From: Eledone cirrhosa
Taxonomy: Eukaryota
Direction: 5' to 3'
DNA length: 64,000 bases
NCBI GenBank assembly: GCA_964016885.1
Contig: OZ024743.1
Span: 52,266,001 to 52,330,000, forward strand
Every line of letters begins with the position of its first letter. Positions within the stretch are counted from its first letter, which is position 1. Under the pieces are notes generated by a model. It was not told the DNA's origin. It searched no databases and saw nothing but the letters and a program-made list of their open reading frames with translations. The translations under genes and the position numbers were made by a program. Shown here in pieces: positions 4,141-62,680 of the stretch.

Positions 4141-4253
4141 ATATACACAGATATAAATTTATTGTATAGTTTGGCTGCTTACTGCACAACTTAATACATA
4201 TCAACATGAACCATAATAATATGCAAATTAGTACGTCTAGTGTGTGTATATAT

Positions 4254-4440: not shown

Positions 4441-4642
4441 GATAACATGTACAAGTATGAGAGTGTATGTGTGTGAATGTGTGTGTATGTGTGCATGGCA
4501 GTGAGTGTGTATGGCAGAGGGTGTGTAGTAATGTGTATATATATGGTAGTGCATGTATGTACAGCACCAAGTGTGTGTGGGTATGTATGTATATGTATGT
4601 ATGCTGCAAGAGTAAACAGTTCGAACCTGTCACCCTGTATTG

Positions 4643-4940
4643 TAGTGGTCCAGGTGGAACACCGGTGGTCCACATAGCATTTCTAGTGGTCCAGGTGGAA
4701 CACCGGTGGTCCACATAGCATTTCTAGTGGTCCAGGTGGAACACCGGTGGTCCACATAGCATTTCTAGTGGTCCAGGTGGAACACCGGTGGTCCACATAG
4801 CATTTCTAGTGGTCCAGGTGGAACACCGGTGGTCCACATAGCATTTCTAGTGGTCCAGGTGGAACACCGGTGGTCCACATAGCATTTCTAGTGGTCCAGG
4901 TGGAACACCGGTGGTCCACATAGCATTTCTAGCGGTCCAC
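4643..4940. repeat. 41-bp tandem repeat, 7 full units plus a partial
   Basis: Unit tagtggtccaggtggaacaccggtggtccacatagcatttc. Confidence 0.95.
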
Positions 4941-5185
4941 AGAGAATACGTAGCCATAAAAAAATTGTAGCCATTTCACAAAAATGTAACTAATATAATA
5001 TTTTGTTTAATTACACACATGTCCATTATATTTGAAAATTTCGAGTTCACAGGTCTGATACTATGGGCATGTGGTTAGAATGTCTCTAGCAGTTCTATTA
5101 CAAAAGATTTAAAAGTTTAGGTGGTCCACAGGAAAAAATTACTTATTTTGGTGGTCAACAGCGAAAAAAAGGTTGAGAACCCCTG
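4643..5185. mobile_element. Remnant of a non-autonomous hAT/Charlie-like DNA transposon
   Basis: Right end ggttgagaacccctg is the reverse complement of CAGGGGTTCTCAACC, a Charlie-type TIR; recurring gtggtccac subterminal motifs; no matching left TIR found. Confidence 0.5.
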
Positions 5186-5188
5186 TTG

Positions 5189-5289
<101 letters not shown>

Positions 5290-5348
5290 AGCAGTGTCTG
5301 TGTATGAGTTTATGGAAGTGTACATGCATGTATGTGTACAGCAACACA

Positions 5349-5396
<48 letters not shown>

Positions 5397-5634
5397 CATA
5401 CATATATATATATACATAGACACACAGGTATATATGTAATATATATATTCCTAGTAGACAACTGATGACGGATACTCTCCTCTTTCGACCGTAACTTTTA
5501 TTTTTCATATAACATAGTTTCCATTTATTTAATATCATTGAATATTATACTCCAGAAATTCTGTCGAGTGCTCTGAATCAGTTATAAACATTTATATTTG
5601 TTGAATTACCAACAAATTAAATATCCCTTCTGCT

Positions 5635-5669
<35 letters not shown>

Positions 5670-5799
5670 GTGTATATATATATACATATATATATATATA
5701 TAATTATATATATATATGCTGTAGACAACCAGTAACCCAGTACTGTAGTGTGTGTGTGTGTGTGTATGGCAGTATGTATGCGTTTATAGCAGTGTGTGT

Positions 5800-6640
5800 A
5801 TGTATATAACAACACATCTATGTATGTGGTAGTGTGTGTACAACACATCTATGTATGTGGTAGTGTGTATACAACACATCTATGTATGTGGTAGTGTGTG
5901 TACAACACATCTATGTATGTGGTAGTGTGTGTACAACACATCTATGTATGTGGCAGTGTGTGTACAACACATCTATGTATGTGGCAGTGTGTGTACAACA
6001 CATCTATGTATGTGGTAGTGTGTGTACAACACATCTATGTATGTGGTAGTGTGTGTACAACACATCTATGTATGTGGTAGTGTGTGTGTGTACAACACAT
6101 CTATGTATGTGGTAGTGTGTGTGTGTACAACAACACATCTATGTATGTGGTAGTGTGTGTGTGTACAACACATCTATGTATGTGGTAGTGTGTGTGTACA
6201 ACACATCTATGTATGTGGTAGTGTGTGTGTGTACAACACATCTATGTATGTGGTAGTGTGTGTGTACAACACATCTATGTATGTGGTAGTGTGTGTACAA
6301 CAACACATCTATGTATGTGGTAGTGTGTGTGTGTACAACAACACATCTATGTATGTGGTAGTGTGTGTGTGTACAACACATCTATGTATGTGGTAGTGTG
6401 TGTGTACAACACATCTATGTATGTGGTAGTGTGTGTGTACAACAACACATCTATGTATGTGGTAGTGTGTGTGTGTACAACACATCTATGTATGTGGTAG
6501 TGTGTGTGTGTACAACACATCTATGTATGTGGTAGTGTGTGTGTGTACAACACATCTATGTATGTGGTAGTGTGTGTACAACAACACATCTATGTATGTG
6601 GTAGTGTGTGTGTGTACAACACATCTATGTATGTGGCAGC
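5800..6640. repeat. ~29-38-bp variable minisatellite (tacaacacatctatgtatgtggtag(tg)n)
   Basis: Direct reading; unit length varies with an embedded (TG)n. Confidence 0.95.
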
Positions 6641-6749
6641 AGCAGACAATTTGAACCAGTCACCTTGTAATCTATTAATTAGAACACATCAACCAATGAA
6701 TAATGGTAGTTCTTTTTTATCTTACATCATCAGTTTCGCAACCTACAAT

Positions 6750-7092
6750 GGTATGATATTGGTAGTGCTGGTAATGGCTGTTATTGTTGTGGTGGTGATG
6801 GTTGTTGTTGTGGTAGTGGTGGTGGTGATGGTTGTTGTTGTGGTAGTGGTGGTGGTGATGGTTGTTGTTGTGGTAGTAGTGGTGATGGTTGTTGTGGTGG
6901 TAATGGTGGTGGTGATGGTTATTGTTGCGGTAGTGGTGGTGGTGGTGGTGGTTCTTGTGGTAATGGTGGTGCTGGTTGTTGTGGTGGTAGTGGTGGTAAT
7001 GGTTGTTGTTGTGGTGGTGGGTGGTGGTGATGGTGGTTGTTGTTGGTGTTGTGGTGTTGGTGGTGATGGGTGTTGTTGGTGATGATGGTGAC
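6750..7092. repeat. (GGT/GTT)n degenerate trinucleotide repeat
   Basis: Direct reading. Confidence 0.9.
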
Positions 7093-7244
7093 TACAGGAA
7101 TATAATGGGCAGGGAATGAAATCCGGAGAAGTGATATTTTGGTGAGCAAGGACTGTGTGTAGAGATTAATGGAGGCCTTGAGGTGGTGGACACAACTTGG
7201 GTAGCATGAGGAGGAAGGGAGATGACAAAGTCAGGAATGCCTGA

Positions 7245-9588
7245 GTGGAGGTGGTACAAAACCATCCATGGTAGTAGTAGAGGTGGTACAAATCTAGCCA
7301 GGTTTGTAGTGACCATTATAGTAGTAGTGGTGGTACAAATCTAGCCAGGTTTGTAGTGAACATTGTAGTAGTAGAGGTGGTACAAAACCAGACAGGTTTG
7401 TAGTGACCATTGTAGTAGTAGAGGTGGTACAAAACCAGCCAGGTTTGTAGTGACCATTATAGTAGTAGAGGTGGTACAAATCTAGCCAGGTTTGTAGTGA
7501 CCATTATAGTAGTAGAGGTGGTACAAAACCAGCCAGGTTTGTAGTGACCATTGTAGTAGTAGAGGTGGTACAAAACCAGCCAGGTTTGTAGTGACCATTA
7601 TAGTAGTAGAGGTGGTACAAAACCAGACAGGTTTGTAGTGACCATTGTAGTAGTAGAGGTGGTACAAAACCAGCCAGGTTTGTAGTGAACATTGTAGTAG
7701 TAGAGGTGGTACAAAACCAGCCAGGTTTGTAGTGAACATTGTAGTAGTAGAGGTGGTACAAAACCAGACAGGTTTGTAGTGAACATTGTAGTAGTAGAGG
7801 TGGTACAAAACCAGACAGGTTTGTAGTGACCATTATAGTAGTAGAGGTGGTACAAAACCAGACAGGTTTGTAGTGAACATTGTAGTAGTAGAGGTGGTAC
7901 AAAACCAGCCAGGTTTGTAGTGAACATTGTAGTAGTAGAGGTGGTACAAAACCAGCCAGGTTTGTAGTGAACATTGTAGTAGTAGAGGTGGTACAAAACC
8001 AGCCAGGTTTGTAGTGACCATTGTAGTAGTAGAGGTGGTACAAAACCAGCCAGGTTTGTAGTGAACATTGTAGTAGTAGAGGTGGTACAAAACCAACCAG
8101 GTTTGTAGTGAACATTGTAGTAGTAGAGGTGGTACAAAACCAGACAGGTTTGTAGTGACCATTATAGTAGTAGAGGTGGTACAAAACCAGACAGGTTTGT
8201 AGTGACCATTGTAGTAGTAGAGGTGGTACAAAACCAGCCAGGTTTGTAGTGAACATTGTAGTAGTAGAGGTGGTACAAAACCAGCCAGGTTTGTAGTGAA
8301 CATTGTAGTAGTAGAGGTGGTACAAAACCAGCCAGGTTTGTAGTGAACATTGTAGTAGTAGAGGTGGTACAAAACCAGACAGGTTTGTAGTGAACATTGT
8401 AGTAGTAGAGGTGGTACAAAACCAGACAGGTTTGTAGTGACCATTATAGTAGTAGAGGTGGTACAAAACCAGACAGGTTTGTAGTGACCATTGTAGTAGT
8501 AGAGGTGGTACAAAACCAGCCAGGTTTGTAGTGAACATTGTAGTAGTAGAGGTGGTACAAAACCAGCCAGGTTTGTAGTGAACATTGTAGTAGTAGAGGT
8601 GGTACAAAACCAGCCAGGTTTGTAGTGAACATTGTAGTAGTAGAGGTGGTACAAAACCAGACAGGTTTGTAGTGAACATTGTAGTAGTAGAGGTGGTACA
8701 AAACCAGACAGGTTTGTAGTGACCATTATAGTAGTAGAGGTGGTACAAAACCAGACAGGTTTGTAGTGACCATTGTAGTAGTAGAGGTGGTACAAAACCA
8801 GCCAGGTTTGTAGTGAACATTGTAGTAGTAGAGGTGGTACAAAACCAGCCAGGTTTGTAGTGAACATTGTAGTAGTAGAGGTGGTACAAAACCAGCCAGG
8901 TTTGTAGTGAACATTGTAGTAGTAGAGGTGGTACAAAACCAGCCAGGTTTGTAGTGAACATTGTAGTAGTAGAGGTGGTACAAAACCAGACAGGTTTGTA
9001 GTGAACATTGTAGTAGTAGAGGTGGTACAAAACCAGACAGGTTTGTAGTGACCATTATAGTAGTAGAGGTGGTACAAAACCAGACAGGTTTGTAGTGACC
9101 ATTGTAGTAGTAGAGGTGGTACAAAACCAGCCAGGTTTGTAGTGAACATTGTAGTAGTAGAGGTGGTACAAAACCAGCCAGGTTTGTAGTGAACATTGTA
9201 GTAGTAGAGGTGGTACAAAACCAGCCAGGTTTGTAGTGAACATTGTAGTAGTAGAGGTGGTACAAAACCAGACAGGTTTGTAGTGAACATTGTAGTAGTA
9301 GAGGTGGTACAAAACCAGACAGGTTTGTAGTGACCATTATAGTAGTAGAGGTGGTACAAAACCAGACAGGTTTGTAGTGACCATTGTAGTAGTAGAGGTG
9401 GTACAAAACCAGCCAGGTTTGTAGTGAACATTGTAGTAGTAGAGGTGGTACAAAACCAGCCAGGTTTGTAGTGAACATTGTAGTAGTAGAGGTGGTACAA
9501 AACCAGCCAGGTTTGTAGTGACCATTGTAGTAGTAGAGGTGGTACAAAACCAGCCAGGTTTGTAGAGTAGAGACCATTGTAGTAGTGA
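7245..9588. repeat. 47-bp minisatellite array, ~50 units, with higher-order periodicity
   Basis: Unit tagtagtagaggtggtacaaaaccag(c/a)caggtttgtagtga(a/c)catt(g/a). Confidence 0.97.
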
Positions 9589-18202: not shown

Positions 18203-18522
18203 ATGAATCGGAATGTAACCCGTGAACTTTTTCCTGGGCAAAATTATTCGAACAGACATGACCTCATTGCCAAAGTGTTCAGACTGAAACTGGCTAAACT
18301 CATGGCTTTAATCAAAAAGGGTCAGGTATTTGGGGCTGTAAAGTGTGACATGTTCACCGTCGAATGGCAAAAACGAGGGCTGCCACATGCTCACATTTTG
18401 ATTTGGTTAGCTGATAAAATCAATTCAAATACCATAGACAGCTTCATTTTGGCTGAAATCCCTAACCCAGCAACTGACCAGGAATTACATGACATCGTCA
18501 AAGCTAACATGGTCCGTGTGCG
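18203..18522 (+). pseudogene. Helitron Rep (HUH endonuclease) fragment
   Basis: ELFPGQ...RHDLIAKVFRLKL...VEWQKRGLPHAHILIWL...IDSFILAEIP...IVKANMV, followed by HGPC in a shifted frame. Confidence 0.92.
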
Positions 18523-20712
18523 GACCCCCCCCCCCCCATCAAAAACGGACTCCAAATAAAAACAGACCCCCCCCCCCAAATAAAAAACGGACCCCCCAAT
18601 AAAAAACGCCCACCCCCATAATAAATGGACCCCCCCCCCCAAATAAAAAACTGTCTCCAAATAAAAATAAGACCCCCCCAATAGAAAACGGACCCCCCCC
18701 CCAAATAAAAAACGAACCCCCCCCAATAAAAAACGCCCACCCCCATAATAAACGGACACCCACCCCTCCCCCGAAATAAAAAACGGTCTCCAAATAAAAA
18801 GCCGACCCGTCCCCCAAATAAAAAACGGACTCCAAATAAAAAACGGCCACCCCCCTAAAACACGGACCCCCATCCCTCCCCAAATAAAAAACAAACCCCC
18901 CAATAGAAAACGGACCCCCCCCCCCAAATAAAAAACGGACACCAAATGAAAAACGGACCCCAATAAAAACAACCCTCCCCCCAAATAAAAAACGGACCCC
19001 CAATAAAAAAACGCCCCCCCCCCTCATAAAAATGCATCCCCATCCCTCCCCCAAATAAAAAGCGGTCTCCAAATAAAAAACCGACGCCCCACATAAAAAA
19101 CTGAACCCAACCCCTCCCCCAAATAAAAAATGGTCTCCAAATAAAAAACGTATCCCCCCAATAAAAAAACGGACCCCCCCATAAAAAGGATCCCCACCCC
19201 TCCCCCAAATAAAAAACGGACCCACTCCAATAAAAAACGCCCCCCCCCCATAAAAAAATGGACGCCCCAAATAACCCCCCACCCCCACCCCGCCAAATAA
19301 AAAACAGACTCCCCAATAAAAAACGGACCCCCCAAATAAAATGGATCCCCCAAATAAAAAACGGATCACCCCCAAATAAAAAACAGACCCCTCCAATAAA
19401 AAAACAGACCCCTCCTCACCAAAAAGGACCCCCCCCAATAAAAAACGGATCCCCCCCCCAAATAAAAAACCGTCTCCTAATACAAACGCCTCCCAATAAA
19501 AGACGGACTCCAAATAAAAACGTACCCACCAAATAAAAAACGGATCACCCCCAAATAAAAAATAGACCCCCCCCCCCAAAAAAAAAACGGACCCCCCCCA
19601 ATAAAAAAACGATCCCCCCAATAAGAAACAGACCCCCCAAATAAAACACGGACTCTTCCCCCAATAACCCCCAAAAGAAACGGACCCCCCACCCCTCCCC
19701 CCAAATAAAAAACGGTCTCCAAATAAAAGACGGACCCCCAATAAAAAACGCCCCCCCCCATAAAAGACGGACCCTCACCCCTCCCCCGAAATAAAAAAAG
19801 GACTCCAAATAAAGAACGGTCTCCAAATAAAAAACAGAGCCCCCCCAATAAAAAATGGACCCCCCCAATAAAAAACGGAGCCCCCCAATAAAAAATGGAT
19901 TCCAAATAAAAACTCCCCCCAATGAAAAACAGAACCCCCAATAAAAAACGGACCCCCCAAATAAAAACGGATCCCCCTCCCACCTCCAAATAAAAAACGG
20001 ACCCTTCCCCCATAAGAAACGGACCCCCACCCCTCCCCCCAAATAAAAAACGGTCTCCAAATAAAAAACGAACCCTCGCCCTTCCCCCGAAATAAAAAAG
20101 GGACTCCAAATAAAAAACGCCCCCCCCCCCCCTAAAACACGGACCCCACCCCTCCCCCCAAATAAAAAACGGTCTTCAAATAAAAAACAGACCCCCCCAA
20201 TAGAAAATGGACCCCCAAATAAAAAACGGAACCGCCCCCCCATAAAAACCGCATCCCCCAACCCTCCCCCCAAATAAAAAACGGTCTCCAAATAAAAAAC
20301 CGACACCCCCCATAAAAAACTGAACCCAACCCCTCCCCCCAAATAAAAAATGGTCTCCAAATAAAAAACAGACCCCCCCCCAATAAAAAACGGACCCCGA
20401 AATGAAAAACGTACCCCCTCCCGATACCCCCCCCCCATAAAAAAGGACCCCCACCCCTCCCCCAAATAAAAAACGGACTACAAATAAAAAACGGCCACCA
20501 CTCCCCTATAAAAAACGGACCCCCCTCAAAATAAAAAATGCCCCCCCCCCCCCATAAAAAACAGATACCCCCAAACAACCCCCCCCCCCCAAAAAAAAAA
20601 AATAAAAGACGGATCCTCCCAAATAAAAAACGGAGCCCTCATAAAAAAACGAACCCCCCATAAAAAACGAATTCCAAATAAAAAAAATCCACCCCCCAAT
20701 AAAAATTGAACT
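18520..20712. repeat. Scrambled C/A-rich modular array (aaataaaaaacggacccccc, aaaaacggtctcc, caccctcccc modules)
   Basis: Direct reading; strong strand asymmetry (G runs on the minus strand). Confidence 0.92.
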
Positions 20713-39780: not shown

Positions 39781-40292
39781 AATATGTTGAAAAGGTAACA
39801 CACCAGAGAGAGCTATACAGTGCGCTATCAATAAAACAGGGAAAAAACCACCAGTGTATGGAATCTATAACCTATGAAAGGCAGACTATAGACACGATAA
39901 TTAAAAATATAAATTAAAGCGTAAATAAATACCTTTATAACTATATAACACACGTACAAATCCAAAGAGATGTTTCACCAGTAAGTTGTTGACAGAAATG
40001 AAATAACCTCGGTTCATCAGCGTGTGTAAGGCTATACATTTCAGACATCACTAAGAGTATTTTAAAAGTGACTGTCCAGCTACACGTGGGAGAGAGAAGT
40101 CACAGCGTGTTTAAGGGCAGTGAACCAGTGGCCTCTGAGGGATGAGCTGCTAGAAAGGGCAGCCCAAAACCACTCAGAGAAGTGTGCTCAACCAAACAGA
40201 GAGATAGGAAAGACTGTTATAAGGAGCGAAATATCACGATAAATTAACGGAGCCATAGGCTCCTTATAACAGTCTTTCCTATCTCTCTGTTA

Positions 40293-42162: not shown

Positions 42163-45100
42163 CTACCATACCACCACTGGTAACACTCTAGGCTACCATA
42201 CCACCACTGGTAACACTCTAGGCCATCATACCACCACTGGTAAGACTCTAGGCCACCATACCACCACTGGTAACACTCTAGGCTACCATACCACCACTGG
42301 TAACACTCTAGGCCATCATACCACCACTGGTAACACTCTAGGCCACCATACCACCACTGGTAAGACTCTAGGCCACCATACCACCACTGGTTACACTCTA
42401 GGCCACCATACCACCACTGGTAACGCTCTAGGCTACCATACCACCACTGGTAACACTCTAGGCCACCATACCACCACTGGTAACACTCAAGGCTACCATA
42501 CCACCACTGGTAACACTCTAGGCCACCATACAACCACTGGTAACACTCTAGGCCACCATACCACCACTGATAAGACTCTAGGCCACCATACCACCACTGG
42601 TAACACTCTAGGCCACCATACCACCACTGGTAACACTCTAGGCTACCATACCACCACTGGTAACACTCTAGGCCACCATACCACCACTGGTAACACTCTA
42701 GGCCACCATGCCACCACTGGTAACACTCTAGGCCACCATACCACCACTGGTAACACTCTAGGCCACCATACCACCACTGGTAAGACTCTAGGCTACCATA
42801 CCACCACTGGTAACACTCTAGGCCACCATACCACCACTGGTAACACTCTAGGCCACCATACCACCACAGGTAACACTCTAGGCCACCATACCACCACTGG
42901 TAACACTCTAGGCCACCATACCACCACTGGTAACACTCTAGGCCACCATACCACCACTGGTAACACTCTAGGCTACCATACCACCACTGGTAACACTCTA
43001 GCCTACCATACCACCACTGGTAACACTCTAGGCCACCATACCACCACTGGTAACACTCTAGGCCATCATACCACCACTGGTAACACTCTAGGCTACCATA
43101 CCACCACTGGTAAGACTCTAGGCCACCACACCACCACTGGTAACACTCTAGGCCACCATACCACCACTGGTAAGACTCTAGGCCACCATACCGCCACTGG
43201 TAACACTCTAGGCCACCATACCACCACTGGTAAGACTCTAGGCCACCATACCGCCACTGGTAACACTCTAGGCCACCATACCACCATTGGTAAGACTCTA
43301 GGCCACCATACCACCACTGGTAACACTCTAGGCCACCATACCACCACTGGTAACACTCTAGGCCACCATACCACCACTGGTAACACTCTAGGCTACCATA
43401 CCACCACTGGTAACACTCTAGGCTACCATACCACCACTGGTAACACTCTAGGCCACCATACCACCACTGGTAACACTCTAGGCCACCATACCACCACTGG
43501 TAACACTCTAGACCACCATACCACCACTGGTAACACTCTAGGCCACCATACCACCACTGGTAACACTCTAGGCTACCATACCACCACTGGTAACACTCTA
43601 GGCCATCATACCACCACTGGTAACACTCTAGGCCACCATACCACCACTGGTAAGACTCTAGGCCACCATACCACCACTGGTTACACTCTAGGCCACCATA
43701 CCACCACTGGTAACGCTCTAGGCTACCATACCACCACTGGTAACACTCTAGGCCACCATACCACCACTGGTAACACTCAAGGCTACCATACCACCACTGG
43801 TAACACTCTAGGCCACCATACAACCACTGGTAACACTCTAGGCCACCATACCACCACTGGTAAGACTCTAGGCCACCATACCACCACTGGTAACACTCTA
43901 GGCCACCATACCACCACTGGTAACACTCTAGGCTACCATACCACCACTGGTAACACTCTAGGCCACCATACCACCACTGGTAACACTCTAGGCCACCATG
44001 CCACCACTGGTAACACTCTAGGCCACCATACCACCACTGGTAACACTCTAGGCCACCATACCACCACTGGTAAGACTCTAGGCTACCATACCACCACTGG
44101 TAACACTCTAGGCAACCATACCACCACTGGTAACACTCTAGGCCACCATACCACCACAGGTAACACTCTAGGCCACCATACCACCACTGGTAACACTCTA
44201 GGCCACCATACCACCACTGGTAACACTCTAGGCCACCATACCACCACTGGTAACACTCTAGGCTACCATACCACCACTGGTAACACTCTAGCCTACCATA
44301 CCACCACTGGTAACACTCTAGGCCACCATACCACCACTGGTAACACTCTAGGCCATCATACCACCACTGGTAACACTCTAGGCTACCATACCACCACTGG
44401 TAAGACTCTAGGCCACCACACCACCACTGGTAACACTCTAGGCCACCATACCACCACTGGTAAGACTCTAGGCCACCATACCGCCACTGGTAACACTCTA
44501 GGCCACCATACCACCACTGGTAAGACTCTAGGCCACCATACCGCCACTGGTAACACTCTAGGCCACCATACCACCATTGGTAAGACTCTAGGCCACCATA
44601 CCACCACTGGTAACACTCTAGGCCACCATACCACCACTGGTAACACTCTAGGCCACCATACCACCACTGGTAACACTCTAGGCTACCATACCACCACTGG
44701 TAACACTCTAGGCTACCATACCACCACTGGTAACACTCTAGGCCACCATACCACCACTGGTAACACTCTAGGCCACCATACCACCACTGGTAACACTCTA
44801 GACCACCATACCACCACTGGTAACACTCTAGGCCACCATACCACCACTGGTAAGACTCTAGGCTACCATACCACCACTGGTAACACTCTAGGCCACCATA
44901 CCACCACTGGTAACACTCTAGGCCACCATACCACCACTGGTAAGACTCTAGGCCACCATACCACCACTGGTAACACTCTAGGCCACCATACCACCACTGG
45001 TAAGACTCTAGGCTACCATACCACCACTGGTAACACTCTAGGCCACCATACCATCACTGGTAACACTCTAGGCCACCATACCACCACTGGTAAGACTCTA

Positions 45101-47580
45101 GGCCACCATACCACCACTGGTAACACTCTAGGCCACCATACCACCACTGGTAACACTCTAGGCCACCATACCACCACTGGTAACACTCGAGGCTACCATA
45201 CCACCACTGGTAACACTCTAGGCCACCATACCACCACTGGTAACATTCTAGGCCACCATACCACCACTGGTAACACTCTAGGCTACCATACCACCACTGG
45301 TAACACTCTAGGCCACCATACCACCACTGGTAACACTCTAGGCCACCATACCACAACTGGTAACACTCTAGGCCACCATACCACCACTGGTAAGACTCTA
45401 GGCCACCATACCACCACTGGTAACACTCTAGGCCACCATACCACCATTGGTAACACTCTAGGCCACCATACCACCACTGGTAACACTCTAGGCCACCATA
45501 CCATCACTGGTAAGACTCTAGGCCACCATACCACCACTGGTAACACTCTAGGCCACCATACCACCATTGGTAACACTCTAGGCCACCATACCACCACTGG
45601 TAACACTCTAGGCCACCAAACCACCACTGGTAAGACTCTAGGCCACCATACCACCACTGGTAACACTCTAGGCCACCATACCACCACTGGTAACACTCTA
45701 GGCCACCATACCACCATTGGTAAGACTCTAGGCCACCATACCACCACTGGTAACACTCTAGGCCACCATACCACCACTGGTAAGACTCTAGGCCACCATA
45801 CCACCACTGGTAACACTCTAGGCCACCATACCACCACTGGTAACACTCTAGGCCACCATACCACCACTGGTAACACTCTAGGCCACCATACCACCACTGG
45901 TAACACTCTAGGCCACCATACCACCACTGGTAACACTCTAGGCTACCATACCACCACTGGTAACACTCTAGGCTACCACACCACCACTGGTAACATTCTA
46001 GGCCACCATACCACCACTGGTAACACTCTAGGCCACCATACCACCACTGGTAAGACTCTAGGCTACCATACCACCACTGGTAACACTCTCGGCTACCATA
46101 CCACCACTGGTAACACTCTAGGCTACCATACCACCATTGGTAACACTCTAGGCTACCATACCCCCACTGGTAACATTCTAGGCCACCATACCATCACTGG
46201 TAACACTCTAGGCCACCATACCACCACTGGTAACACTCTAGGCCACCATACCACCACTGGTAACACTCTAGGCCACCATACCACCACTGGTAACACTCTA
46301 GGCCACCATACCACCACTGGTAACACTCTAGGCCACCATACCACCACTGGTAACACTCGAGGCTACCATACCACCACTGGTAACACTCTAGGCCACCATA
46401 CCACCACTGGTAACACTCTAGGCTACCATACCACCACTGGTAAGACTCTAGGCTACCATACCGCCACTGGTAACATTCTAGGCCACCATACCACCACTGG
46501 TTACACTCTAGGCCACCATACCACCACTGGTAACACTCTAGGCCACCATACCACCACTGGTAAGACTCTATGCGACCATACCACCACTGGTAACACTTTA
46601 GGCCACCATACCTCCACTGGTAACACTCTAGGCTACCATACCACCACTGGTAACACTCTAGGCCACCATACCACCACTGGTAACACTCTAGGCCACCATA
46701 CCACCACTGGTAACACTCTAGGCCACCATACCACCACTGGTAACACTCTAGGCTACCATACCACCACTGGTAACACTCTAGACCACCATACCACCACTGG
46801 TAACACTCTAGGCTACCATACCACCACTGGTAACACTCTAGGCTACCATACCACCACTGGTAACACTCTAGGCTACCATACCACCACTGGTAACACTCTA
46901 GGCTACCATACCACCACTGGTAACACTCTAGGCCACCATACCACCACTGGTAACACTCTAGGCCACCATACCACCACTGGTAACACTCTAGGCCACCATA
47001 CCACCACTGGTAACACTCTAGGCCACCATACCACCACTGGTAACACTCTAGGCTACCATACCACCATTGGTAACACTCTAGGCCACCATACCACCACTGG
47101 TAACACTCTAGGCTACCATACCACCACTGGTAACACTCTAGGCTACCATACCACCACTGGTAACACTCTAGGCCACCATACCACCACTGGTAACACTCTA
47201 GGCCACCATACCACCACTGGTAACACTCTAGGCCACCATACCACCACTGGTAACACTCTAGGCCACCATACCACCACTGGTAACACTCTAGGCTACCATA
47301 CCACCACTGGTAAGACTCTAGGCCACCATACCACCACTGGTAACACTCTAGGCCACCATACCATCACTGGTAACACTCTAGGCTACCATACCACCACTGG
47401 TAACACTCTAGGCCACCATACCACCACTGGTAACACTCTAGGCCACCATACCACCACTGGTAACACTCTAGGCCACCATACCACCACTGGTAACACTCTA
47501 GGCTACCATACCACCACTGGTAACACTCTAGGCTACCATACCACCACTGGTAACACTCTAGGCCACCATACCACCACCAT
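42163..47580. repeat. 30-bp minisatellite array, ~180 units, in MMAB intron 5
   Basis: Unit ggtaacactctaggc(c/t)accataccaccact; stays in register with the 60-nt lines throughout, so no indels. Confidence 0.98.
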
Positions 47581-50897: not shown

Positions 50898-51212
50898 AAA
50901 CAAGATGGCGTAGGAGAGGCACAAAACAAAGAAAAGAATCCCCAGTCACTGAAGAGGTCACAGAATGTGTGACGAAAGAACTTTGACAATATATGAACAA
51001 CCGTCTGGTTGTGGAACCAACCAACCAACTGGAAATTTATAAATTTTTAAATTTATAATTTAATTTATAATAAATTGGAGTGAAAGCAACTGGTGCGTGT
51101 GTTTCTTATTGGCAACATGGCCCCCCCCCCCCCTCCCCCCAAAGTATAACAATATCGGTTTCAACACACGTTTTCAGATAAAGAATCTTGCTAAACAAAT
51201 TCAGAAACGAAA
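50898..51212 (+). mobile_element. Penelope-like terminal-repeat (pLTR-like) fragment between (TA)n tracts
   Basis: Contains a hammerhead-like fold at 50945-50987; homologous to 59503-59862. Confidence 0.5.
50945..50987 (+). ncRNA. Minimal type-I hammerhead-like ribozyme (variant)
   Basis: GTCA-CTGAAGA-G-GTCACA-gaatg-TGTGAC-GAAA-GAAC-TT-TGAC. Confidence 0.5.
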
Positions 51213-51529
51213 TATATATATATATATATGTCTGTGTGTGTATGTATATATATATATATATATATGAATGCATATATATGTATATGTATATATATATGTA
51301 TATGTGTATATACATATGTGTGTATATGTATGTATATATATGTGTATATATGTATATATATATATATGCATATGTGTGTCTGTGTGTAATATATATATGT
51401 ATACACACACACATTTAACTACTCCTTTAGCCATGTAGGTAAATATTATTATATTGTGTGTGTGTATGTGTTTATCTTTGCAAGGGTAAGGCCACTGCTA
51501 CTATTTCTGATGGTGATGTGGGGGGGGGG

Positions 51530-52880: not shown

Positions 52881-53348
52881 TATGTATAAAGCTATGCTTG
52901 AAGTGAAATCCTATTTCTATTATATATATATATGACCAGGTGGACCATAACGTGCCAGAGTACTCGATATTTAGGGTAGTAGAGTGGGTATAGGTTGTGA
53001 TTTCAATTCCCGGACCGGATGATGCGTTATGTCCTTGAGCAACACACTTTATTTCACGTTGCTCCCTCTGCCTGGATTTACAGCTGACTGTATCAGCAAT
53101 TGAAAAGACCAATGGAAACATTGTTTCCTCGGTTCGATTTGACGAGTTCCACCCCATTTGTTAAGCGAATGAGGTCTGGGATCTTGTTGATCAACTGTCG
53201 ATGTCTGGGTGTCAATGAGGGTTTAAGGAATCCATAAAGGGGTTGATGATATGGGGGTGGGGGGTATAGAGAATCCCTTGTGGGTACATTATTATTATTA
53301 TTGCTGTTGTATTTATTCATTAATCCTGTTTTATTTGTCAAACCCTAG

Positions 53349-53446
53349 AGAGAACCAGCTTCAATGATAAACATGTGAAGGAGCTTGAGACATGGATTGA
53401 TGAATACACAGCTGAGTTACCTCCCCTGAAGAATTTCATCCTTCCG
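53349..53446 (+). CDS. MMAB: MMAB exon 6 (98 nt)
   Basis: ccctag acceptor; (K)[32 protein letters not shown]; gtaaat donor. Confidence 0.96.
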
Positions 53447-53984
53447 GTAAATATTGTTGTTTTGTGTGTGTGGTTTATTGCTCTTGGCTTGTCACCATGG
53501 AATATTTGGTGAAAGTCTGCCCACCAGCCTAAAATGTGACCTGACCCATCTATGAGACGTGTTGAAGAAAGTGAGCAAAATATAGTTAGTATTGAATGTG
53601 AGGAAAAGAAATGAAATGAGATGGCTTGGTCATGTGCTGAAGAAGGATAAACGTGATTGAATGGAGATGAATGTGGAAGACAGAAGAAAGAGAAGACCAA
53701 GAATTGCCTGACTAAAGATGAGGGAGGAAATGAAAACCAGGGATTTGTGAGTGGGGATGATAGAACAAAATGGTGAAGCTTGTTATTGGGTTCACAGACC
53801 TTTAGCAGTGAAAATGGCCTTAAAAATCTTTGTTGTTGCATAAGGCCTAAAATTCTAGAAACTTATCCCATAACTTATTTTGTCAACCCCAGAAGGCTAA
53901 ACGCAGAAGTTGACCTTGAAGTGATTTGAACTCAGAACATAAATAACCCTAAGAAAATACTGATCTCCAGCATGCCCTTGATAG

Positions 53985-54730
53985 GTAATGATGCTGAGTG
54001 CTGCATGGCTGGAATGAAAATCAGTGCTGCAAAGACTCAGACATTCGTCCTTTCAGGGAAGCCTCCACAGTTCTCTGTACATGTGAATGGAGTTCCACTG
54101 AAGCAGGTGGAGAAGTTTATCTCGGGGCCGTGTTCATAGTGATGGAAGGCAGGAGGTGGAATTAAGGGCAAGAATTGCAGGAGCTAGTGCAGTAACACGC
54201 CAGCTTAAGCATTTGGTAATCAGAAGGAAGGTTGGTGTAAAAGCCAAACTCGCTATCTTCAATTCGGTATTTGTGCCAATCCTTACCTATGATCATGAAT
54301 CTAGGGTAATGACCGAAAGAATACAATGGCGAATACAAGCAGCTGAAATTGGTTTCTTCCGAAGGGTCTTTGGAGTAACGTTACTCGATAGAGTGCTTAG
54401 CTCAGAGATCACAGAGTCACTCCAGATAGAGGCGGTACTTCTCTGAATTGAGAGATCACAACTCAGATACTATGGACATGTGGTTAGAATGTCTCAAGAA
54501 AGAATTGCTGGACAGATTTTATGGGCAAAACCAACTGGTAGGAGACCCAGGGGTAGATCCCGAGCAAAATGGTTGGATAACATCCATGAATTTGGCTGGT
54601 CTCGCTTGGGGATCCAGCCGGAGCAATTGGAGACGGTTGCTTCTGACAGGACCCCATGGAAGGAGTGTTTGAGGACTCTGCCCCCATGACCCTCTCAGGA
54701 ATAAATGGGTGAAGAAGAAGAAGAAGAGAA
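53985..54730 (+). mobile_element. 5'-truncated LINE of a third (RTE-like) family with (GAA)n tail
   Basis: RARIAGAS..KLAIFNSVFVPILTYDHES..RIQAAEIGFFRRV..KPTGRRPRGRSRAKW; decayed pieces at ~24930-25180 and ~28430-28770. Confidence 0.85.
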
Positions 54731-54770
54731 GATATATATATTTATGTCATATAGACACATATATAACTGT

Positions 54771-55075
54771 TTAACCCTTTAGCATTCACATTATTTTATA
54801 TATATACTATTATATTTTCATTGTAAAGGCTTTACCTCACATAATTACCTCACATAATTACCTCACATAATTACCTCACATAATTATCTCACATAATTAT
54901 CTCACATAATTATCTCACATAATATCGAATCTATGAGATTTTGAAAATATTTATTTTGAGAACAATACCTTAACATCAGTATGAGCGACCATATACAGCC
55001 AGTTTCAACAGAAAGAGGTAGAGAATTCTGGCCGGTTTGGACCGCTTTGGGCCAGTTTGAACATTAAAGGGTTAA
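54771..55075. mobile_element. TTAA-flanked MITE family 1 with an internal 13-bp tandem amplification
   Basis: ttaaccctttagc ... taaagggttaa; (a(c/t)ctcacataatt)n at ~54834-54922. Confidence 0.78.
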
Positions 55076-55578
55076 TGCATATATTTATACATCTGTGTGT
55101 ATGTATATCTGCATGTATGATAAAGGGTGGAAGCACTCATAAGAGTCAACGGCCATCCAAAAATATGTAAATATGTATATACATGTATGCATGTGTATAT
55201 ATGTATATATATGTATATGTGTGTATACATGTATGCATGTGTATATATATATATATATGTATATGTGTGTATTCATGTATGCATGTGTATGAGTATGCGC
55301 GGGGACATAGAAATAGTCGGGCTGGACATCCAATCACGCGGTTAATCCACTGGGAGTGAAGGACCCCTAGCCCTTGTCATGGCATTCTTCTAGGAGAAGG
55401 TAACTCAGGAAACTCGGATAACTCCGAGATAAAACCTGTGGCTCAGTAGTTACCGGTGATGTTGATCTTTTCTTCTTTTCGGGTTATAGCTACTGTCGCT
55501 CAGAGAGTGGGATTGGCTCAGTGCACAGTCTTTCCTCACTTTAAAAAAATCTTTACGGACAGGCATTGCACGATAGAA

Positions 55579-55796
55579 TTAATTAATAATTAATTGTTTC
55601 TACTTTTTGGCACAAGGCCAGCAATTACCCAGTACATTACTGGTACTTTATTTTATCGACCCTGTAAGGATGAAAGGCAAAGTTAACCTCGGCGGGATTT
55701 GAACTCAGATCATAAAGGGACATAACTATGCTAGAAAGCATGGCGTCTGACCCTCTACTGATACTGCCAATCCACCGCCCTTAATTAATAATTAAT
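55579..55796 (-). mobile_element. SINE family A with 16-bp target-site duplication
   Basis: ttaattaataattaat at 55579-55594 and 55781-55796. Confidence 0.9.
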
Positions 55797-56107
55797 AATG
55801 TTATATCGTGCAATGGCCATACTCGATAACGAGGGGGCAGCCATCATCATGTATGAGTATATACACACATAGCACACACACACAGCACACACCGGGGGTA
55901 TACACACACAGCACACACACGGGGTATACACACACAGCACACACACTTGTATGAGCTATATATGAGATAATATGCAGGTTTTTAATTAACCAATCACTCG
56001 ACTAGTGTCCATGTGCATCTCATCTACCAAAGTAACTTCTGCACATGATTTACATAACATTTCACACTGCAACTAATGTAACACTTTCATGTAAGACAAC
56101 TGTATAA

Positions 56108-56682
56108 ATGGTGTTGTTGGTGGTGTTGGTGTTGTTGGTGGTGTTGGTGGTGGTGTTGGTGGTGGTTGTGGTGGTGGTGTTGGTGGTGGTGTTGTTGTTG
56201 GTGATATTGGTGTTGGTGGTGGTGGTGGTGTTGGTGGTGGTTGTGGTGGTGGTGTTGGTGGTGGTGTTGTTGTTGGTGATATTGGTGTTGGTGGTGGTGT
56301 TGGTGGTGGTGTTGTTGTTGGTGATATTGGTGTTGGTGGTGGTGGTGGTGTTGGTGGTGGTGTTAGTGGTGGTTTTGGTGTTGGTGATGTTGGTGGTGGT
56401 GGTGGTGTTGGTGGTGGTGTTGGTGTTGTTAATGTTACTGGTAGTGGTGGGAGAATTGCTGGTGATGGTGGTGGTATTAGTAATGGCCATGGTGTTCATA
56501 GCAGTATTGTTGATGATGGTGATGATAGTAGTAGTGGTGGTGGTGGTGATGGTGATGATAATAGTAGTGGTGGTGGTGGTGGTGGTGGTGATAATAATAG
56601 TGGTGGTGGTGGTGGTGGTGGTGATAGTTGTAGTGGTGGTGGTGGTGATGGTGATGATAATAGGAGTGGTGGTGGTGGTGTT
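56108..56682. repeat. (GGT/GTT)n degenerate trinucleotide tract
   Basis: Direct reading. Confidence 0.92.
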
Positions 56683-56867
56683 GAGTATATTGGGGGGGGG
56701 CCTGCTGTTTCTAAGAAATTGTGGGAGGGAGTGTGTGTATGTGTTGTGTAGTATATGTGAGCAGATTTACACACACATACATCTTGAAGAATCACACAGA
56801 CACATGGTCTTGCACATACTTGATCTGAACCGATGCTAAGATGCTGACAGCTTTGACAGTAAGTCTT

Positions 56868-57890
56868 ACACACACACATACACACACATACATCCACACA
56901 CACACACACATCCACACACACACATCCACACGCACACACACATCCACACGCATCCATACACACACACACATCCACACACACACACATACAGACACACGCA
57001 CATCCACACACATGTACACACATACACACACACATACATCCACACACACACACACACATCCACACACACGTACACACATACATCCACACACATGTACACA
57101 CACGTACACACAACAGACATCCACACACACACATCCACATCCACACACACACACACACATCCACACACACACACATACAGACACACGCACATCCACACAC
57201 ATGTACACACATACACAGACACATACATCCACACACACATACACACACACATACATCCACACACACACACACATCCACACACACGTACACACAGACATCC
57301 ACACACATGTACACACACACGCACACACAACAGACATCCACACACACACACACGTACACACAGACATCCAGACACACACACCCACATCCACACACACACA
57401 CACATGCTTACATACACAGACATCCACACACACACACATCCACACACACACACACACATACACACAGACATCCACACACACACACACATCCACACACACG
57501 CACACACACACACACACACACGCATCCACACACGTACACACAAACATGCTTACATACACAGACATCCACACACACACATCCACACAGACGTACACACACA
57601 GACGTACACACAGACGTACACACAGACGTACACACACAGACGTACACACAGACGTACACACAGACGTACACACACAGACGTACACACACAGACGTACACA
57701 CACAGACGTACACACAGACGTACACACAGACGTACACACACAGACGTACACACACAGACGTACACACACAGACGTACACACACAGACGTACACACACAGA
57801 CGTACACACACAGACGTACACACACAGACGTACACACAGACGTACACACACAGACGTACACACACAGACGTACACACAGACATCCACACA
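56868..57890. repeat. Compound (CA)n tract with catcc and cagacgta modules
   Basis: Direct reading. Confidence 0.92.
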
Positions 57891-58034
57891 TACCTCCATA
57901 TCCATACCACATCTCATATTGGCCAATCCTTGCAGTGGTACCATCGTTACCAACAATGTCTGTCTATAGATTGGTTGTCTAATACTTATTTCTCTCATTC
58001 TTAAGTTACTGACTTACTATATACACACACATAT

Positions 58035-58066
<32 letters not shown>

Positions 58067-58329
58067 GTATGTTTGTATATATATATATATATATATAGCA
58101 GAGAAACCTTTTATTGTCTTAAAGAAAATGGAAATAAATATTTAAGAAACCACACATACACACAGATATATATATATATACATATTTGTGTATATACAGA
58201 ATGCATAGTTACATATACATACCCATATACATACATGTATTACATACTTGTATATATATATATATATATATATAAGGTATATATATATATTTATATATAT
58301 ATGAGGATATATAATATATATATATATAT

Positions 58330-58377
<48 letters not shown>

Positions 58378-58951
58378 ATATATATATATATATAAGGTAT
58401 ATATATATATATATATCCGCTTTTTCCCTGCTTGGGAATATATATGAGGTATATATATATATATATAAGGTGTATATATATAATCATCATCATCATTTCA
58501 TTTTACGTCCGCTTTTTCCATGCTTGCAAGGGTGGGACGGGAACTGATTCTGGCTTGATATCTACAGCTGGATGCCCTTCCTAACACCAACCTCATTTAC
58601 AGTGAGTGCTGGGTGCTTTTTTGCCGTGGTACCTCCACGACCACTTTGCAGTGGAATGATAGGGACCCCAGTCCCTAACATCTCATTTCTACAGCTGAGT
58701 AAACTGGAGCAATGTGAAATAAAGTGTCTTGCTCAAGGAAACAACACATCACCTGCTCAAGGAAACAAATGTATATATATATATACCTTATATATATATA
58801 TATAAGGTATATATATATATATATATATATGATATTAACAAATGTAAACTATATATATGAAAGCTCCCGGAAGCTCCCGGGAGCTTCCAACAGTAATGGT
58901 TGCATTCTTTAAGGGTATGTCAATATTTATTTATAAAACTGCTCTATATTA

Positions 58952-59016
58952 TATTTTATCTGATGAAAGCACACCATAATTTAACTTGGTGTCCTTGAAA
59001 TATGTATAATGAAATA
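58952..59016 (+). ncRNA. Minimal type-I hammerhead ribozyme fold
   Basis: TATTTTAT-CTGATGA-AAG c ACACCA-loop-TGGTGT c CTT-GAA-ATATGTAT-A-ATGAAATA: intact core boxes, 8-bp stem I with one G.U, quasi-palindromic stem III, AUA cleavage triplet. Confidence 0.72.
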
Positions 59017-59143
59017 AATATGGTTTTATAAATATAGTTTCCATTTGTTAATATCGTATTTTTACTCCAATTATTTGTTGAGTGCTTTATATCAGTTATA
59101 AAAATATTTGCTTGTTGTATCCCAACAATTTAAATAGAACTTT

Positions 59144-59214
<71 letters not shown>

Positions 59215-59244
59215 AGATCAAAAGATGGTTAAAAGAGTTCCATG

Positions 59245-59315
59245 TATTTTATTATGCGCATTTCAAAAACAAATATCATCATGAGATGACATTTGCGTTT
59301 TCATCAGATAAAATA
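59245..59315 (-). ncRNA. Minimal type-I hammerhead ribozyme fold
   Basis: Minus strand TATTTTAT-CTGATGA-AAACGCAAATGTCATC-tcat-GATGATATTTGTTTTT-GAA-ATGCGCAT-A-ATAAAATA: perfect 8-bp stem I, long stem II, palindromic stem III, AUA triplet. Confidence 0.82.
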
Positions 59316-59437
59316 GGGATACATGATATGAAGGTTAAAAAGCACTTGTGAATAGTGGAGTTTTAAATCAACATAAGTTTTAATCAACTTATCCGATATC
59401 TGCATTGCTTTATTGTACTACAATAAAACTCACCTCC

Positions 59438-59506
<69 letters not shown>

Positions 59507-59560
59507 CGTTTCTGAATTTGTTTAACAAGATTCTTTATCTGAAAACGTGTGTTGAAACCG

Positions 59561-59856
59561 ATATTGTTATACTTTGGGAGGGTCATGTTGCCAATAAGAA
59601 ACACACGCACCAGTTGCTTTCACTTCAATTTATTATAATAAATTTATAAATTTAGGAATTTATAAATTTCCGGTTGGTTGGTTGGTTCCACAACCAGATG
59701 GTTGTTTATATATATATATAACCATCTGGTTGTGGAACCAACCAACCAACCGGAAATTTATAAATTCCTAAATTTATAAATTTATTATAATAAATTGAAG
59801 TGAAAGCAACTGGTGCGTGTGTTTCTTATTTGCAACATGACCCTCCCAAAGTATAG

Positions 59857-59862
<6 letters not shown>
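59561..59862. repeat. Fold-back palindrome with 143-bp arms and a 16-nt spacer
   Basis: 59561-59703 is the reverse complement of 59720-59862; 2 mismatches by eye. Confidence 0.95.
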
Positions 59863-59901
<39 letters not shown>

Positions 59902-60011
59902 ATATATATAAGGTATCTCCATATTTAAGACTTGAACCACTGTTCACCTCACTCACTGTGTCCTATAGTACTACTAAAGTGAACTAGTGCAGTTTAGATA
60001 GAATTATGGAC

Positions 60012-60712
60012 TTAGTAACTGCAGTAGTAATAGTAGCAGTTCTAGTGGTAGCTGTAGCATTAGTACTAATGGTGGTGATGGTAGTAACATTAATAGTAGT
60101 AGTAGTAGTAATAACAGTAATAGTAGTGGTAGTAGTAGTTGTAGAAGTAGTAACAGTTGTAGTAATAGTGGTAGTAGTTGTAGAAGTAGTAATAACAGTA
60201 ATGGTAGTAGTGGTTGTAGTAGTAACTATTTTCAAATTGCAAGTTTCCTTGATTCATTGTTATAACTAAATTGGTGATGGTAATCATGTTTATGGTGATG
60301 ATGATGGTGGTGATGATGGTGGTGGTGGTGTTGGTGGTTTGGTGGTGATAGTGATGGTGGTGGTGGTGATGGTGGTGTTGTTGTTGGTGGTGATGGTGGT
60401 GGTGACTGGTGATGATGGTGGTGGTGGTGGTGGTGACTGGTGATGATGGTGGTGATGGTGTTGGTGGTGGTGACTGGTGATGATGATGGTGGTGGTGGTG
60501 GTGGTAACTGGTGAGGATGATGAGGAAGATAATGGTGGTTATGGTAATGATAACGATGGTGGTGGTGATGATGGTGATAATGTTAATTATGATGATGAGG
60601 ATGATGATATTGACACTGATTACAATGATGATGACAATGACTGTGATGATGATGATAATGATGACAATGACTGTGATGATGATAATGATTGTGATGATGT
60701 TGATGATGGTGA
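60012..60712. repeat. Successive (GTA)n, (GGT)n and (GAT)n degenerate tracts directly upstream of MMAB exon 7
   Basis: Direct reading. Confidence 0.9.
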
Positions 60713-60730
60713 TTTATTTTTAATTTTCAG

Positions 60731-60795
60731 TCTGGCGGAAAAGCTGCTGCCTCCCTCCACATGGCTAGATCAATTTGTCGACGAGCTGAACGAAC
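60731..60795 (+). CDS. MMAB: MMAB exon 7 (65 nt)
   Basis: ttttcag acceptor; SGGKAAASLHMARSICRRAER, containing the conserved RRAER motif; gtgagt donor. Confidence 0.96.
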
Positions 60796-60802
60796 GTGAG
60801 TA

Positions 60803-62680
60803 ACATTACCCCATCATGCAATATTATATAGCAGGAAACCCTTCCTGGTGTCAACTATCCCATCATGCAATATTAAAGGGCAGGAAACACTTCCTGATGT
60901 CAACTATCCCATCATGCAATATTATATAGCAGGAAACCCTTCCTGGTGTCAACTATCCCATCATGCAATATTATATAGCAGGAAACCCTTCCTGGTGTCA
61001 ACTATCCCATCATGCAATATTAAAGGGCAGGAAACCCTTCCTGGTGTCAACTATCCCATCATGCAATATTATATAGCAGGAAACCCTTCCTGGTGTCAAC
61101 TATCCCATCATGCAATATTAAAGGGCAGGAAACACTTCCTGATGTCAACTATCCCATCATGCAATATTATATAGCAGGAAACCCTTCCTGGTGTCAACTA
61201 TCCCATCATGCAATATTATATAGCAGGAAACCTTTCCTGGTGTCAACTATCCCATCATGCAATATTATATAGCAGGAAACCCTTCCTGATGTCAACTATC
61301 CCATCATGCAATATTATATAGCAGGAAACCCTTCCTGGTGTCAACTATCCCATCATGCAATATTATATAGCATGAAACCCTTCCTGGTGTCAACTATCCC
61401 ATCATGCAATATTATATAGTAGGAAACCCTTCCTGATGTCAACTATCCCATCATGCAATATTATATAGCAGGAAACCCTTCCTGGTGTCAACTATCCCAT
61501 CATGCAATATTATATAGCAGGAAACCCTTCCTGGTGTCAACTATCCCATCATGCAATATTAAAGGGCAAGAAACCCTTCCTGGTGTCAACTATCCCATCA
61601 TGCAATATTATATAGCAGGAAACCCTTCCTGATGTCAACTATCCCATCATGCAATATTAAAGGGCAGGAAACCGTTCCTGGTGTCAACTATCCCATCATG
61701 CAATATTATATAGCAGGAAACCCTTCCTGGTGTCAACTATCCCATCATGCAATATTATATAGCAGGAAACCCTTCCTGGTGTCAACTATCCCATCATGCA
61801 ATATTATATAGCAGGAAACCCTTCCTGGTGTCAACTATCCCATCATGCAATATTATATAGCAGGAAACCCTTCCTGGTGTCAACTATCCCATCATGCAAT
61901 ATTATATAGCAGGAAACCGTTCCTGGTGTCAACTATCCCATCATGCAATATTATATAGCAGGAAACCCTTCCTGGTGTCAACTATCCCATCATGCAATAT
62001 TATATAGCAGGAAACCCTTCCTGGTGTCAACTATCCCATCATGCAATATTATATAGCAGGAAACCGTTCCTGGTGTCAACTATCCCATCATGCAATATTA
62101 AAGGGCAAGAAACCCTTCCTGGTGTCAACTATCTCATCATGCAATATTATATAGCAGGAAACCGTTCCTGGTGTCAACTATCCCATCATGCAATATTAAA
62201 GGGCAGGAAACCCTTCCTGGTGTCAACTATCCCATCATGCAATATTATATAGCAGGAAACCGTTCCTGGTGTCAACTATCCCATCATGCAATATTATATA
62301 CCAGGAAACCGTTCCTGGTGTCAACTATCCCATCATGCAATATTATATAGCAGGAAACCGTTCCTGGTGTCAACTATCCCATCATGCAATATTATATACC
62401 AGGAAACCGTTCCTGGTGTCAACTATCCCATCATGCAATATTAAAGGGCAGGAAACCCTTCCTGGTGTCAACTATCCCATCATGCAATATTATATAGCAG
62501 GAAACCGTTCCTGGTGTCAACTATGCCATCATGCAATATTATATACCAGGAAACCGTTCCTGGTGTCAACTATCCCATCATGCAATATTATATACCAGGA
62601 AACCGTTCCTGGTGTCAACTATCCCATCATGCAATATTATATGACTAGAAACCATCTCGAGGCAAACTATCCCATGATGC
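60803..62680. repeat. 49-bp minisatellite array, ~38 units, starting at the exon-7 donor
   Basis: Unit cccatcatgcaatatta(tata/aagg)gcaggaaacc(c/g)ttcctggtgtcaactat. Confidence 0.97.

Follow-up and report, generated by a model that had tools for sequence, protein, structure and literature searches.

Two type I hammerhead motifs lying on opposite strands around a (TA)n tract in an intron of MMAB in Eledone cirrhosa very probably belong to the pseudo-LTRs (pLTRs) of two different families of Penelope-like elements (PLEs). Both families likely belong to the Hydra clade, and each likely entered that one tract by an insertion of its own. The locus was analysed within a stretch of 64,000 nucleotides (hereafter the window), and the two families, designated A and B, were followed in loci fetched from the rest of the genome. 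PLE hammerheads are already published, as are inverted arms, tails and a Hydra family from octopus; families A and B, their scale and a strict rule governing the two ends of an insertion are new here. No report of these families, of this copy number or of a strict short-plus-long rule was found in the literature searched, with subscription papers, Repbase and Dfam lying outside that search. The features of the locus are collected in Table 1.

Table 1. Features of the insertion site in the window (pLTR coordinates, in brackets, are counted from the ribozyme cut site)
Feature	Position	Strand	Match or basis
MMAB intron holding the insertions	53447..60730	+	GT after codons FILP, AG before SGGK; PF01923 match at 60722-60814
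Family A inverted arm (+16 to +48)	58831..58862	-	89% over 36 nt to family A
Family A forward arm, solo pLTR (~-132 to +138)	58877..59146	+	100% over 270 nt to L063
Hammerhead A (type I, stem III palindromic; cleavage predicted after A59008)	58952..59016	+	
(TA)31 tract, target common to insertions A and B	59147..59209		
Family B forward arm, solo pLTR (~-122 to short 3' site, +38 to +45)	59210..59375	-	
Hammerhead B (type I, stem III palindromic; cleavage predicted after the A at 59253)	59245..59315	-	
Family B inverted arm (+82 to +134), ends at long 3' site	59388..59440	+	
(TA)32 tract between insertions B and E	59441..59504		
Family E insertion, two head-to-head arms, one long and one short end	59505..59858		

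Insertions at the locus and their element families

The inverted arm of insertion A ends at a short 3' site and abuts the left TA tract, while its forward arm ends at a long 3' site, with a tail of ~90 nt. The pLTR of L063 that matches this forward arm runs into an ORF, and the arm is 99.6% identical to L064 and L061. The forward arm of insertion B is 97.5% identical to L067 and 94.5% identical to the 3' pLTR of the intact-ORF copy L138, and its inverted arm matches the tail of L140 (100% over 55 nt). The neighbouring insertion of a third family, E, is 89-90% identical to a hammerhead-bearing copy at 50901-51215; it starts just downstream of its hammerhead and thus lacks one, and no ORF linked to family E was found. 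Since a tblastn search with the A protein found no ORF remnant in the window or in 30 kb of flanking sequence, the A and B copies are both solo, and they are likely passive leftovers. Both repeats were present in four contig sets of unrecorded kind, which hold no piece across the locus and have no bearing on expression.

The preliminary description had counted at least five further intact or decayed hammerhead folds in the window; of the five that it listed, only two (50949 and 40020) look near-intact. The fold at 50949, in the copy at 50901-51215, is a near-intact minimal hammerhead of family E. The core at 40020, within 39781-40150 on the minus strand, belongs by eye to a near-intact type I hammerhead with a longer stem III, and the repeat that holds it is also present in L131 and L102. 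At 5462-5640, a family-A-like tail (75%) with a long 3' end is preceded by a CUGAUGA core without GAAA and is not intact. Cores are broken in the folds at 12445 and 25402, which were not confirmed as hammerheads. Among other repeats of the window, the one at 58480-58755 is very common (matches in 62 loci), not PLE-like by these tests and possibly a SINE. Minisatellites and arrays occupy 7267-9565, 42165-47577 and 18500-20700 (long minisatellites, i.e. a 47-mer x49 and a 30-mer x180, and a degenerate C/A-rich array). At ~770-860, the plus strand reads LLYADDLVLIAES, the RT motif of a LINE remnant that we take to be RTE-like.

Elsewhere in the genome, both pLTRs are joined to long ORFs. The family A pLTR reads into an ORF (ATG at +187) in L063 and L064 and follows the 3' UTR of an ORF in L061; that of family B likewise joins an ORF (ATG at +219) in L067, L134, L138 and L140. 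A unit that comes after the 3' UTR of an ORF and also leads into the start of that ORF is a pseudo-LTR by definition. The linked PLE RT ORFs that the preliminary description had proposed to look for were thus found for both families. Six A and ten B loci were fetched from the longest reading frames: ORFs of 742 aa are unbroken in two A loci (L129 and L130), and ORFs of 798-809 aa in 10/10 of the B loci picked in this way for long frames. Identity between the A and B proteins is 52-53%; searches at the protein level produced 91,378 and 58,629 candidates, which are first-look figures and not copy numbers. The one close homologue bearing a name comes from Argonauta.

The single ORF carries a YRDD motif in a telomerase-like RT, and a structure model built from 107 sequences (pLDDT 90.5) found telomerase RT as its two best PDB matches (E 4e-9). 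Within the C-terminal region, a putative GIY-YIG endonuclease with a strand-strand-helix layout, Y622, Y635, G637, R646 and H650 are invariant in the 107 homologues. Neither an RT nor a GIY-YIG domain was recognised by Pfam in five fragments and five whole ORFs or by a sequence search of the PDB. The motifs of the Hydra clade were found, i.e. DKT (as DKTNN), CxCX5C (CNCxxxxxC), CxxC and CxH (CRH/CLH), the CxxC motif being altered in one of five rows (L138); the position of the N-terminal RWK motif reads RWR/RWH in A and RWI/RWT in B. Units are ~3-3.7 kb long, with an ORF of 2.2-2.4 kb and a 3' UTR of ~0.6-1.1 kb, and pLTRs, an inverted 5'-truncated arm and an optional tail are all present, as in EN+ Penelope-like elements. 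Placed by these motifs, families A and B likely belong to the Hydra clade. Asn-rich inserts of low confidence were observed between domains (residues 487-510 and 588-597 in L129:2175-4400, ~600-670 in the B ORFs); they recall the N-rich inserts of rotifer Penelope elements described in the parts of PMC3846280 considered here.

Craig et al. 2021 (PMC8557442, compared in part) characterise the Hydra clade by DKT, CxCX5C, CxxC and CxH motifs, (TA)n insertion and hammerheads, in elements generally below 3 kb. Families A and B share with these elements all four motifs and, putatively, the C-terminal endonuclease, as well as a hammerhead after the ORF, insertion in (TA)n and inverted 5'-truncated arms. 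They differ by their length (~3-3.7 kb) with a long 3' UTR, by a tail of ~90 nt instead of 30-40, by a stem II with a conserved C.Y mismatch after 3 bp, and by a very high copy number, Hydra figures for the latter not being among the parts compared. Hydra-1_Obim, from Octopus bimaculoides, has another hammerhead, and a by-eye comparison with the printed supplement indicated that the A and B protein and hammerhead sequences both differ from it (PMC8557442). For Octopus vulgaris, a repeat annotation from 2026 gives counts of Penelope-like families, with no mention of Hydra or of ribozymes in the portion of its main text consulted (PMC13282606). The parts of PMC8967140 and PMC6962438 consulted contribute nothing further on this point.

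The three near full-length copies bearing the exact A pLTR of the window (L063, L064 and L112) each contain 2-7 frameshifts. Unbroken A ORFs occur instead in a sister subfamily, whose pLTRs match the window copy at only 89-92%; the latest window-type A copies may therefore have been mobilised in trans. The A subfamily of the window differs from the intact ORF by 53 synonymous and 18 non-synonymous fixed differences over 530 codons, so that this lineage was under selection for its protein; the idea of a long-dead ORF moved only in trans is weakened by this ratio. As a separate observation, L063, L064 and L112/L128 have pLTRs 98-100% like that of the window and ORF regions only 92-95% alike with many indels, whereas L129 and L130 are 98.8% alike without gaps. 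Error-prone copying, trans mobilisation and assembly errors are candidate causes of this divergence.

Insertion ends and a proposed mode of integration

Ends were read in the first 30 loci each of an exact A 24-mer and an exact B 26-mer, a sample not chosen by ends. Two 3' sites ~90 nt apart lie downstream of the cut site, a short one (+48 in A, +38 to +45 in B) and a long one (+138 in A, +134 in B), and 29/30 copies of each family end at one or the other. These ends abut TA in 27/30 A and 28/30 B copies; with TA following 55 of the 60 sampled 3' ends, insertion at (TA)n, as first described from the window, is borne out. Short and long ends were paired in 16/17 A and 15/16 B inverted copies (31/33, the other two being unclassified). 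Short-short or long-long pairs were absent from these 33 inverted copies, and the 31 short-long copies represent 26 separate insertions once five double counts are removed. When all 203 loci were considered, a set partly selected by end type, 92 cases divided into 79 short-long, five long-long, no short-short and eight unclassified. Insertions A, B and E of the window all obey the short-plus-long rule. No adjacent inverted arm was seen in 13/30 A and 14/30 B sampled copies; some of these are long, or carry an arm too small to be recognised. Solo pLTRs of 130-370 nt make up most of the sample.

The 5' ends cluster as well, at -134 to -136 in 10/30 A copies and at -124 to -126 in 11/30 B copies. 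Genome-wide, 227 A copies start at ~-133 right after TA, versus three at a control site ~20 nt downstream, and 1,219 A copies read through the ~-133 site from the 3' UTR. These hot spots adjoin short palindromes (CCGG, CATATG) and the TA microhomology is 3 nt at the fixed 5' end versus 2 nt at the control; the fixed end could therefore be due in part to annealing and not to an RNA start. A start of copies at the ribozyme cut site was considered and rejected, as only 2/331 arms begin within -3 to +5, in a set where most loci came from hammerhead-containing queries and cut-site starts are under-sampled.

Thirteen adjacent pairs split only by TA were found, of which 11 are convergent (that of the window included), one is tandem and one is an internal junction lying within a single insertion. 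Because both outer ends of an insertion are 3' ends, neighbours in a TA tract face each other. The convergence of A and B thus likely arises only because most insertions point both ends outward. Among the first 60 loci, few had the two families side by side. The convergent pair noted in the preliminary description is therefore not a unit: A and B lie apart in most loci and convergence is the usual geometry of neighbours.

We propose that the element protein would nick both strands of the TA tract and that each target strand would then prime a cDNA within uncut element RNA, the short site being the start of one cDNA and the long site that of the other; the two cDNAs would be joined head to head at their 3' ends. 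Since arms often overlap in sequence, two passes over a template are needed. Each cDNA would often run off at the RNA 5' end ~130 nt upstream of the cut site, or stop earlier, the fixed 5' end being then the likely RNA start; cleavage by the hammerhead would require a dimer or the help of protein and would likely take place in the element's own transcripts. We consider evenly balanced the chances of the fuller proposal, i.e. that every two-armed insertion comes from an asymmetric protein pair priming one target strand at the short site and the other at the long site, that the bulk of copies are 'strong-stop'-like run-off cDNAs from the 5' pLTR, and that ~71,000 hammerheads were seeded in this way with each insertion leaving new TA targets.

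Several of these steps have counterparts in the green anole element Poseidon_Ac (Frangieh et al. 2024, PMC11167929, in the parts considered). The protein of this lizard PLE is a predicted dimer, and in vitro it nicks AT-rich DNA on both strands and extends each of them; uncut RNA is the template, two internal start sites bound the tail, and the hammerhead cuts only with protein. Families A and B are similar in their AT-rich target and in the two internal RT start sites that bound the tail downstream of the hammerhead; Poseidon_Ac has no copies ending at the cut site, and here almost none starts there. The start sites lie inside the ORF in Poseidon_Ac and upstream of the ATG here, and no strand difference was seen in vitro, whereas inverted insertions here almost always combine a short and a long end (PMC11167929). 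A tail on one of two inverted pLTRs was previously described and attributed to self-priming on an antisense template (PMC3846280).

The main alternative is that the short inserts form a self-propagating non-autonomous family, SINE- or retrozyme-like, whose solo pLTRs are copied in trans by a PLE protein. The prevalence of short solo pLTRs agrees with it, as do the presence of both start sites in a long-ended solo copy and the existence of near-identical A copies when the three near full-length carriers of that pLTR are frameshifted. From the literature seen in part, pLTRs can act in cis for trans-mobilisation (PMC3846280) and a 2026 preprint derives animal retrozymes from pLTRs (bioRxiv 10.64898/2026.07.22.740005); the inserts resemble animal non-LTR retrozymes as short non-coding type I units related to pLTRs (PMC7229834; bioRxiv 10.64898/2026.07.22.740005). 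However, their sequence is that of the autonomous pLTR itself, without private features, and junctions vary between copies, as expected of fresh products. Copies running into the ORF were also seen, which a solo template could not give, and the excess of synonymous changes argues for a lineage selected for its protein. Retrozymes are head-to-tail arrays giving circular RNAs (PMC7229834, in part), whereas the copies here are solo or head to head and bounded by TA: the tandem copies that the preliminary description suggested seeking, a hallmark of retrozymes, were absent at the locus and in the sampled loci. A retrozyme-type system, or the non-autonomous one that it proposed, is not supported, since both motifs are pLTRs joined elsewhere to ORFs for an RT and a putative endonuclease, and we regard a self-propagating family as unlikely.

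The host intron

MMAB lies on the plus strand, with exon-like stretches at ~33040, 35220, 38017, 53345-53446 and from 60731. The intron holding the insertions is presumably intron 6 by human numbering. Hammerhead A is in the sense orientation relative to the MMAB pre-mRNA, in agreement with the preliminary description, and no second sense copy was found in the MMAB intron.

Selection for the convergent pair as a unit appears very improbable, as does regulation of MMAB through cleavage of its pre-mRNA by the sense copy after A59008. The plus-strand copy is intact as well as sense, and convergent A/B neighbours are also found at other loci; yet this copy is identical to dispersed copies, hence young and without any trace of local selection, neighbours converge by default and ~1.5 such motifs are expected per 64 kb anyway. 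The minus-strand copy is antisense in the pre-mRNA and thus cannot serve as a dimer partner. The predicted self-duplex of stem III is weak in A (-2.2 kcal/mol, versus -10.5 in B), these dimer energies being rough and leaving out the stem I extension. According to the parts of PMC4209133 considered, minimal PLE hammerheads have no activity as monomers and low activity as dimers, and the lizard element has no RNA ending at the cut site (PMC11167929). Opposite-strand hammerhead pairs 100-700 bp apart were already known (PMC4209133). Cleavage of the MMAB pre-mRNA looks unlikely and would probably be of little consequence. Many introns of this animal carry sense hammerheads, apparently harmless. 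The MMAB locus itself is ordinary, and its value lies in the element family that it contains.

Hammerhead structure and abundance

The type I hammerhead descriptor gave two matches in the window, at 58960 (+) and 59307 (-), and no third. On the plus strand, hammerhead A has a stem I of 8 bp with one G-U pair (58952-58959/59009-59016), the core CUGAUGA at 58960, a stem II in which a C.C mismatch separates the first 3 bp from 6 more, followed by GAA, and a stem III formed by the palindrome AUAUGUAU (59000-59007). Hammerhead B, on the minus strand beyond the (TA)31 tract, has its core from 59307, a stem II with a C.U mismatch between the first 3 bp and a further 12, and the palindrome AUGCGCAU (59261-59254) as stem III. 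The folds are as the preliminary description had them. Their frequency exceeds that in shuffled sequence, a comparison it had called for: the same descriptor gave no match in any of 200 dinucleotide-preserving shuffles (block-wise, 1-kb blocks). Folding z-scores were modest (-1.8 and -2.6; with flanks -2.0 and -3.3), the catalytic junction did not form in the minimum-energy folds of A and B, and none of the 142 matches in an Rfam scan (to E 5) was to a hammerhead family.

A relaxed scan of the fetched loci yielded 108 distinct hammerhead motifs, of which 25 variants spanning four related groups were hand-picked from the descriptor matches and aligned. In this alignment, 96.2% of 525 cells are paired, versus 34-57% in slid controls, and compensatory change occurred on both sides in 15/21 pairs; as choice by descriptor favours pairing, these covariation figures are upper bounds. 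RNAalifold, unaided, recovers stem II only, with covariation in eight of its nine pairs. The core is invariant in the 25 variants except for the free N7, and the cleavage triplet is AUA. These covarying stems support the earlier reading that structure was kept while sequence changed. A C.C or C.U mismatch after the third stem II pair (58970/58993 in the window) is common to the four divergent groups; this conserved C.Y mismatch may be a tertiary contact with a bulged stem I extension. By sequence, A and B are confirmed as type I hammerheads, and self-cleavage is predicted.

Minimal hammerheads in metazoan PLE pLTRs were reportedly described by Luense et al. in 2017. Families A and B resemble the pLTR hammerheads of Cervera and de la Pena 2014 (PMC4209133, compared in part) in being type I, with a long stem II and a palindromic stem III pointing to dimers, and in occurring mostly as single dispersed copies. 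They differ from those minimal hammerheads by a longer stem I (8 bp plus a predicted extension), by an 8-nt palindrome and by having neither the unpaired base after position 9 nor the G10.1-C11.1 pair, stem II opening with A-U pairs in both A and B; the family E motif at 50949 does fit the latter two features (PMC4209133).

A degenerate pattern for the whole motif type gave 71,432 matches in the 3.0-Gb genome and none when reversed, which corresponds to ~1.5 matches per 64-kb window, so that two in this window are ordinary. Chance folding of AT-rich DNA, to which the 26% GC of the region, the modest z-scores and the lack of an Rfam hammerhead match might point, has next to no probability and is refuted, as far as sequence can show, by the empty shuffles, by the contrast between pattern and reversed pattern, and by the invariant core with changes on both sides of most pairs. 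The 71,432 matches compare with 2,000-9,000 per genome in the part of PMC4209133 considered, and with 126,247 canonical motifs in the far larger axolotl genome (PMC7229834, in part). The exact A 24-mer has 4,386 occurrences and the exact B 26-mer has 168; identity among dispersed copies reaches 100% in family A, and family B has copies of its own. At least five further hammerhead types were noticed in L014, L184, L120, L135, L008, L066, L088 and L181, which makes the genome-wide count a lower bound. The abundance and diversity of the ribozyme system proposed from the window alone are thus upheld. The same B/E nested insertion recurs every 27-28 kb in L116, L118 and L119 (G000:C4 352.20-352.28 Mb), which is a tandem segmental duplication.

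For the mechanism of PLE integration, the short-plus-long rule and the fixed 5' end are sharp predictions, which tens of thousands of copies together with intact-looking ORFs make testable. If the proposed mode of integration is true, Hydra elements have seeded ~71,000 hammerheads in this genome, one per 42 kb, each insertion leaving new TA targets for the next one. These PLEs, likely of the Hydra clade, are a large, recently active part of this genome, and copies of them that are short could pass for SINEs or for simple inverted repeats.
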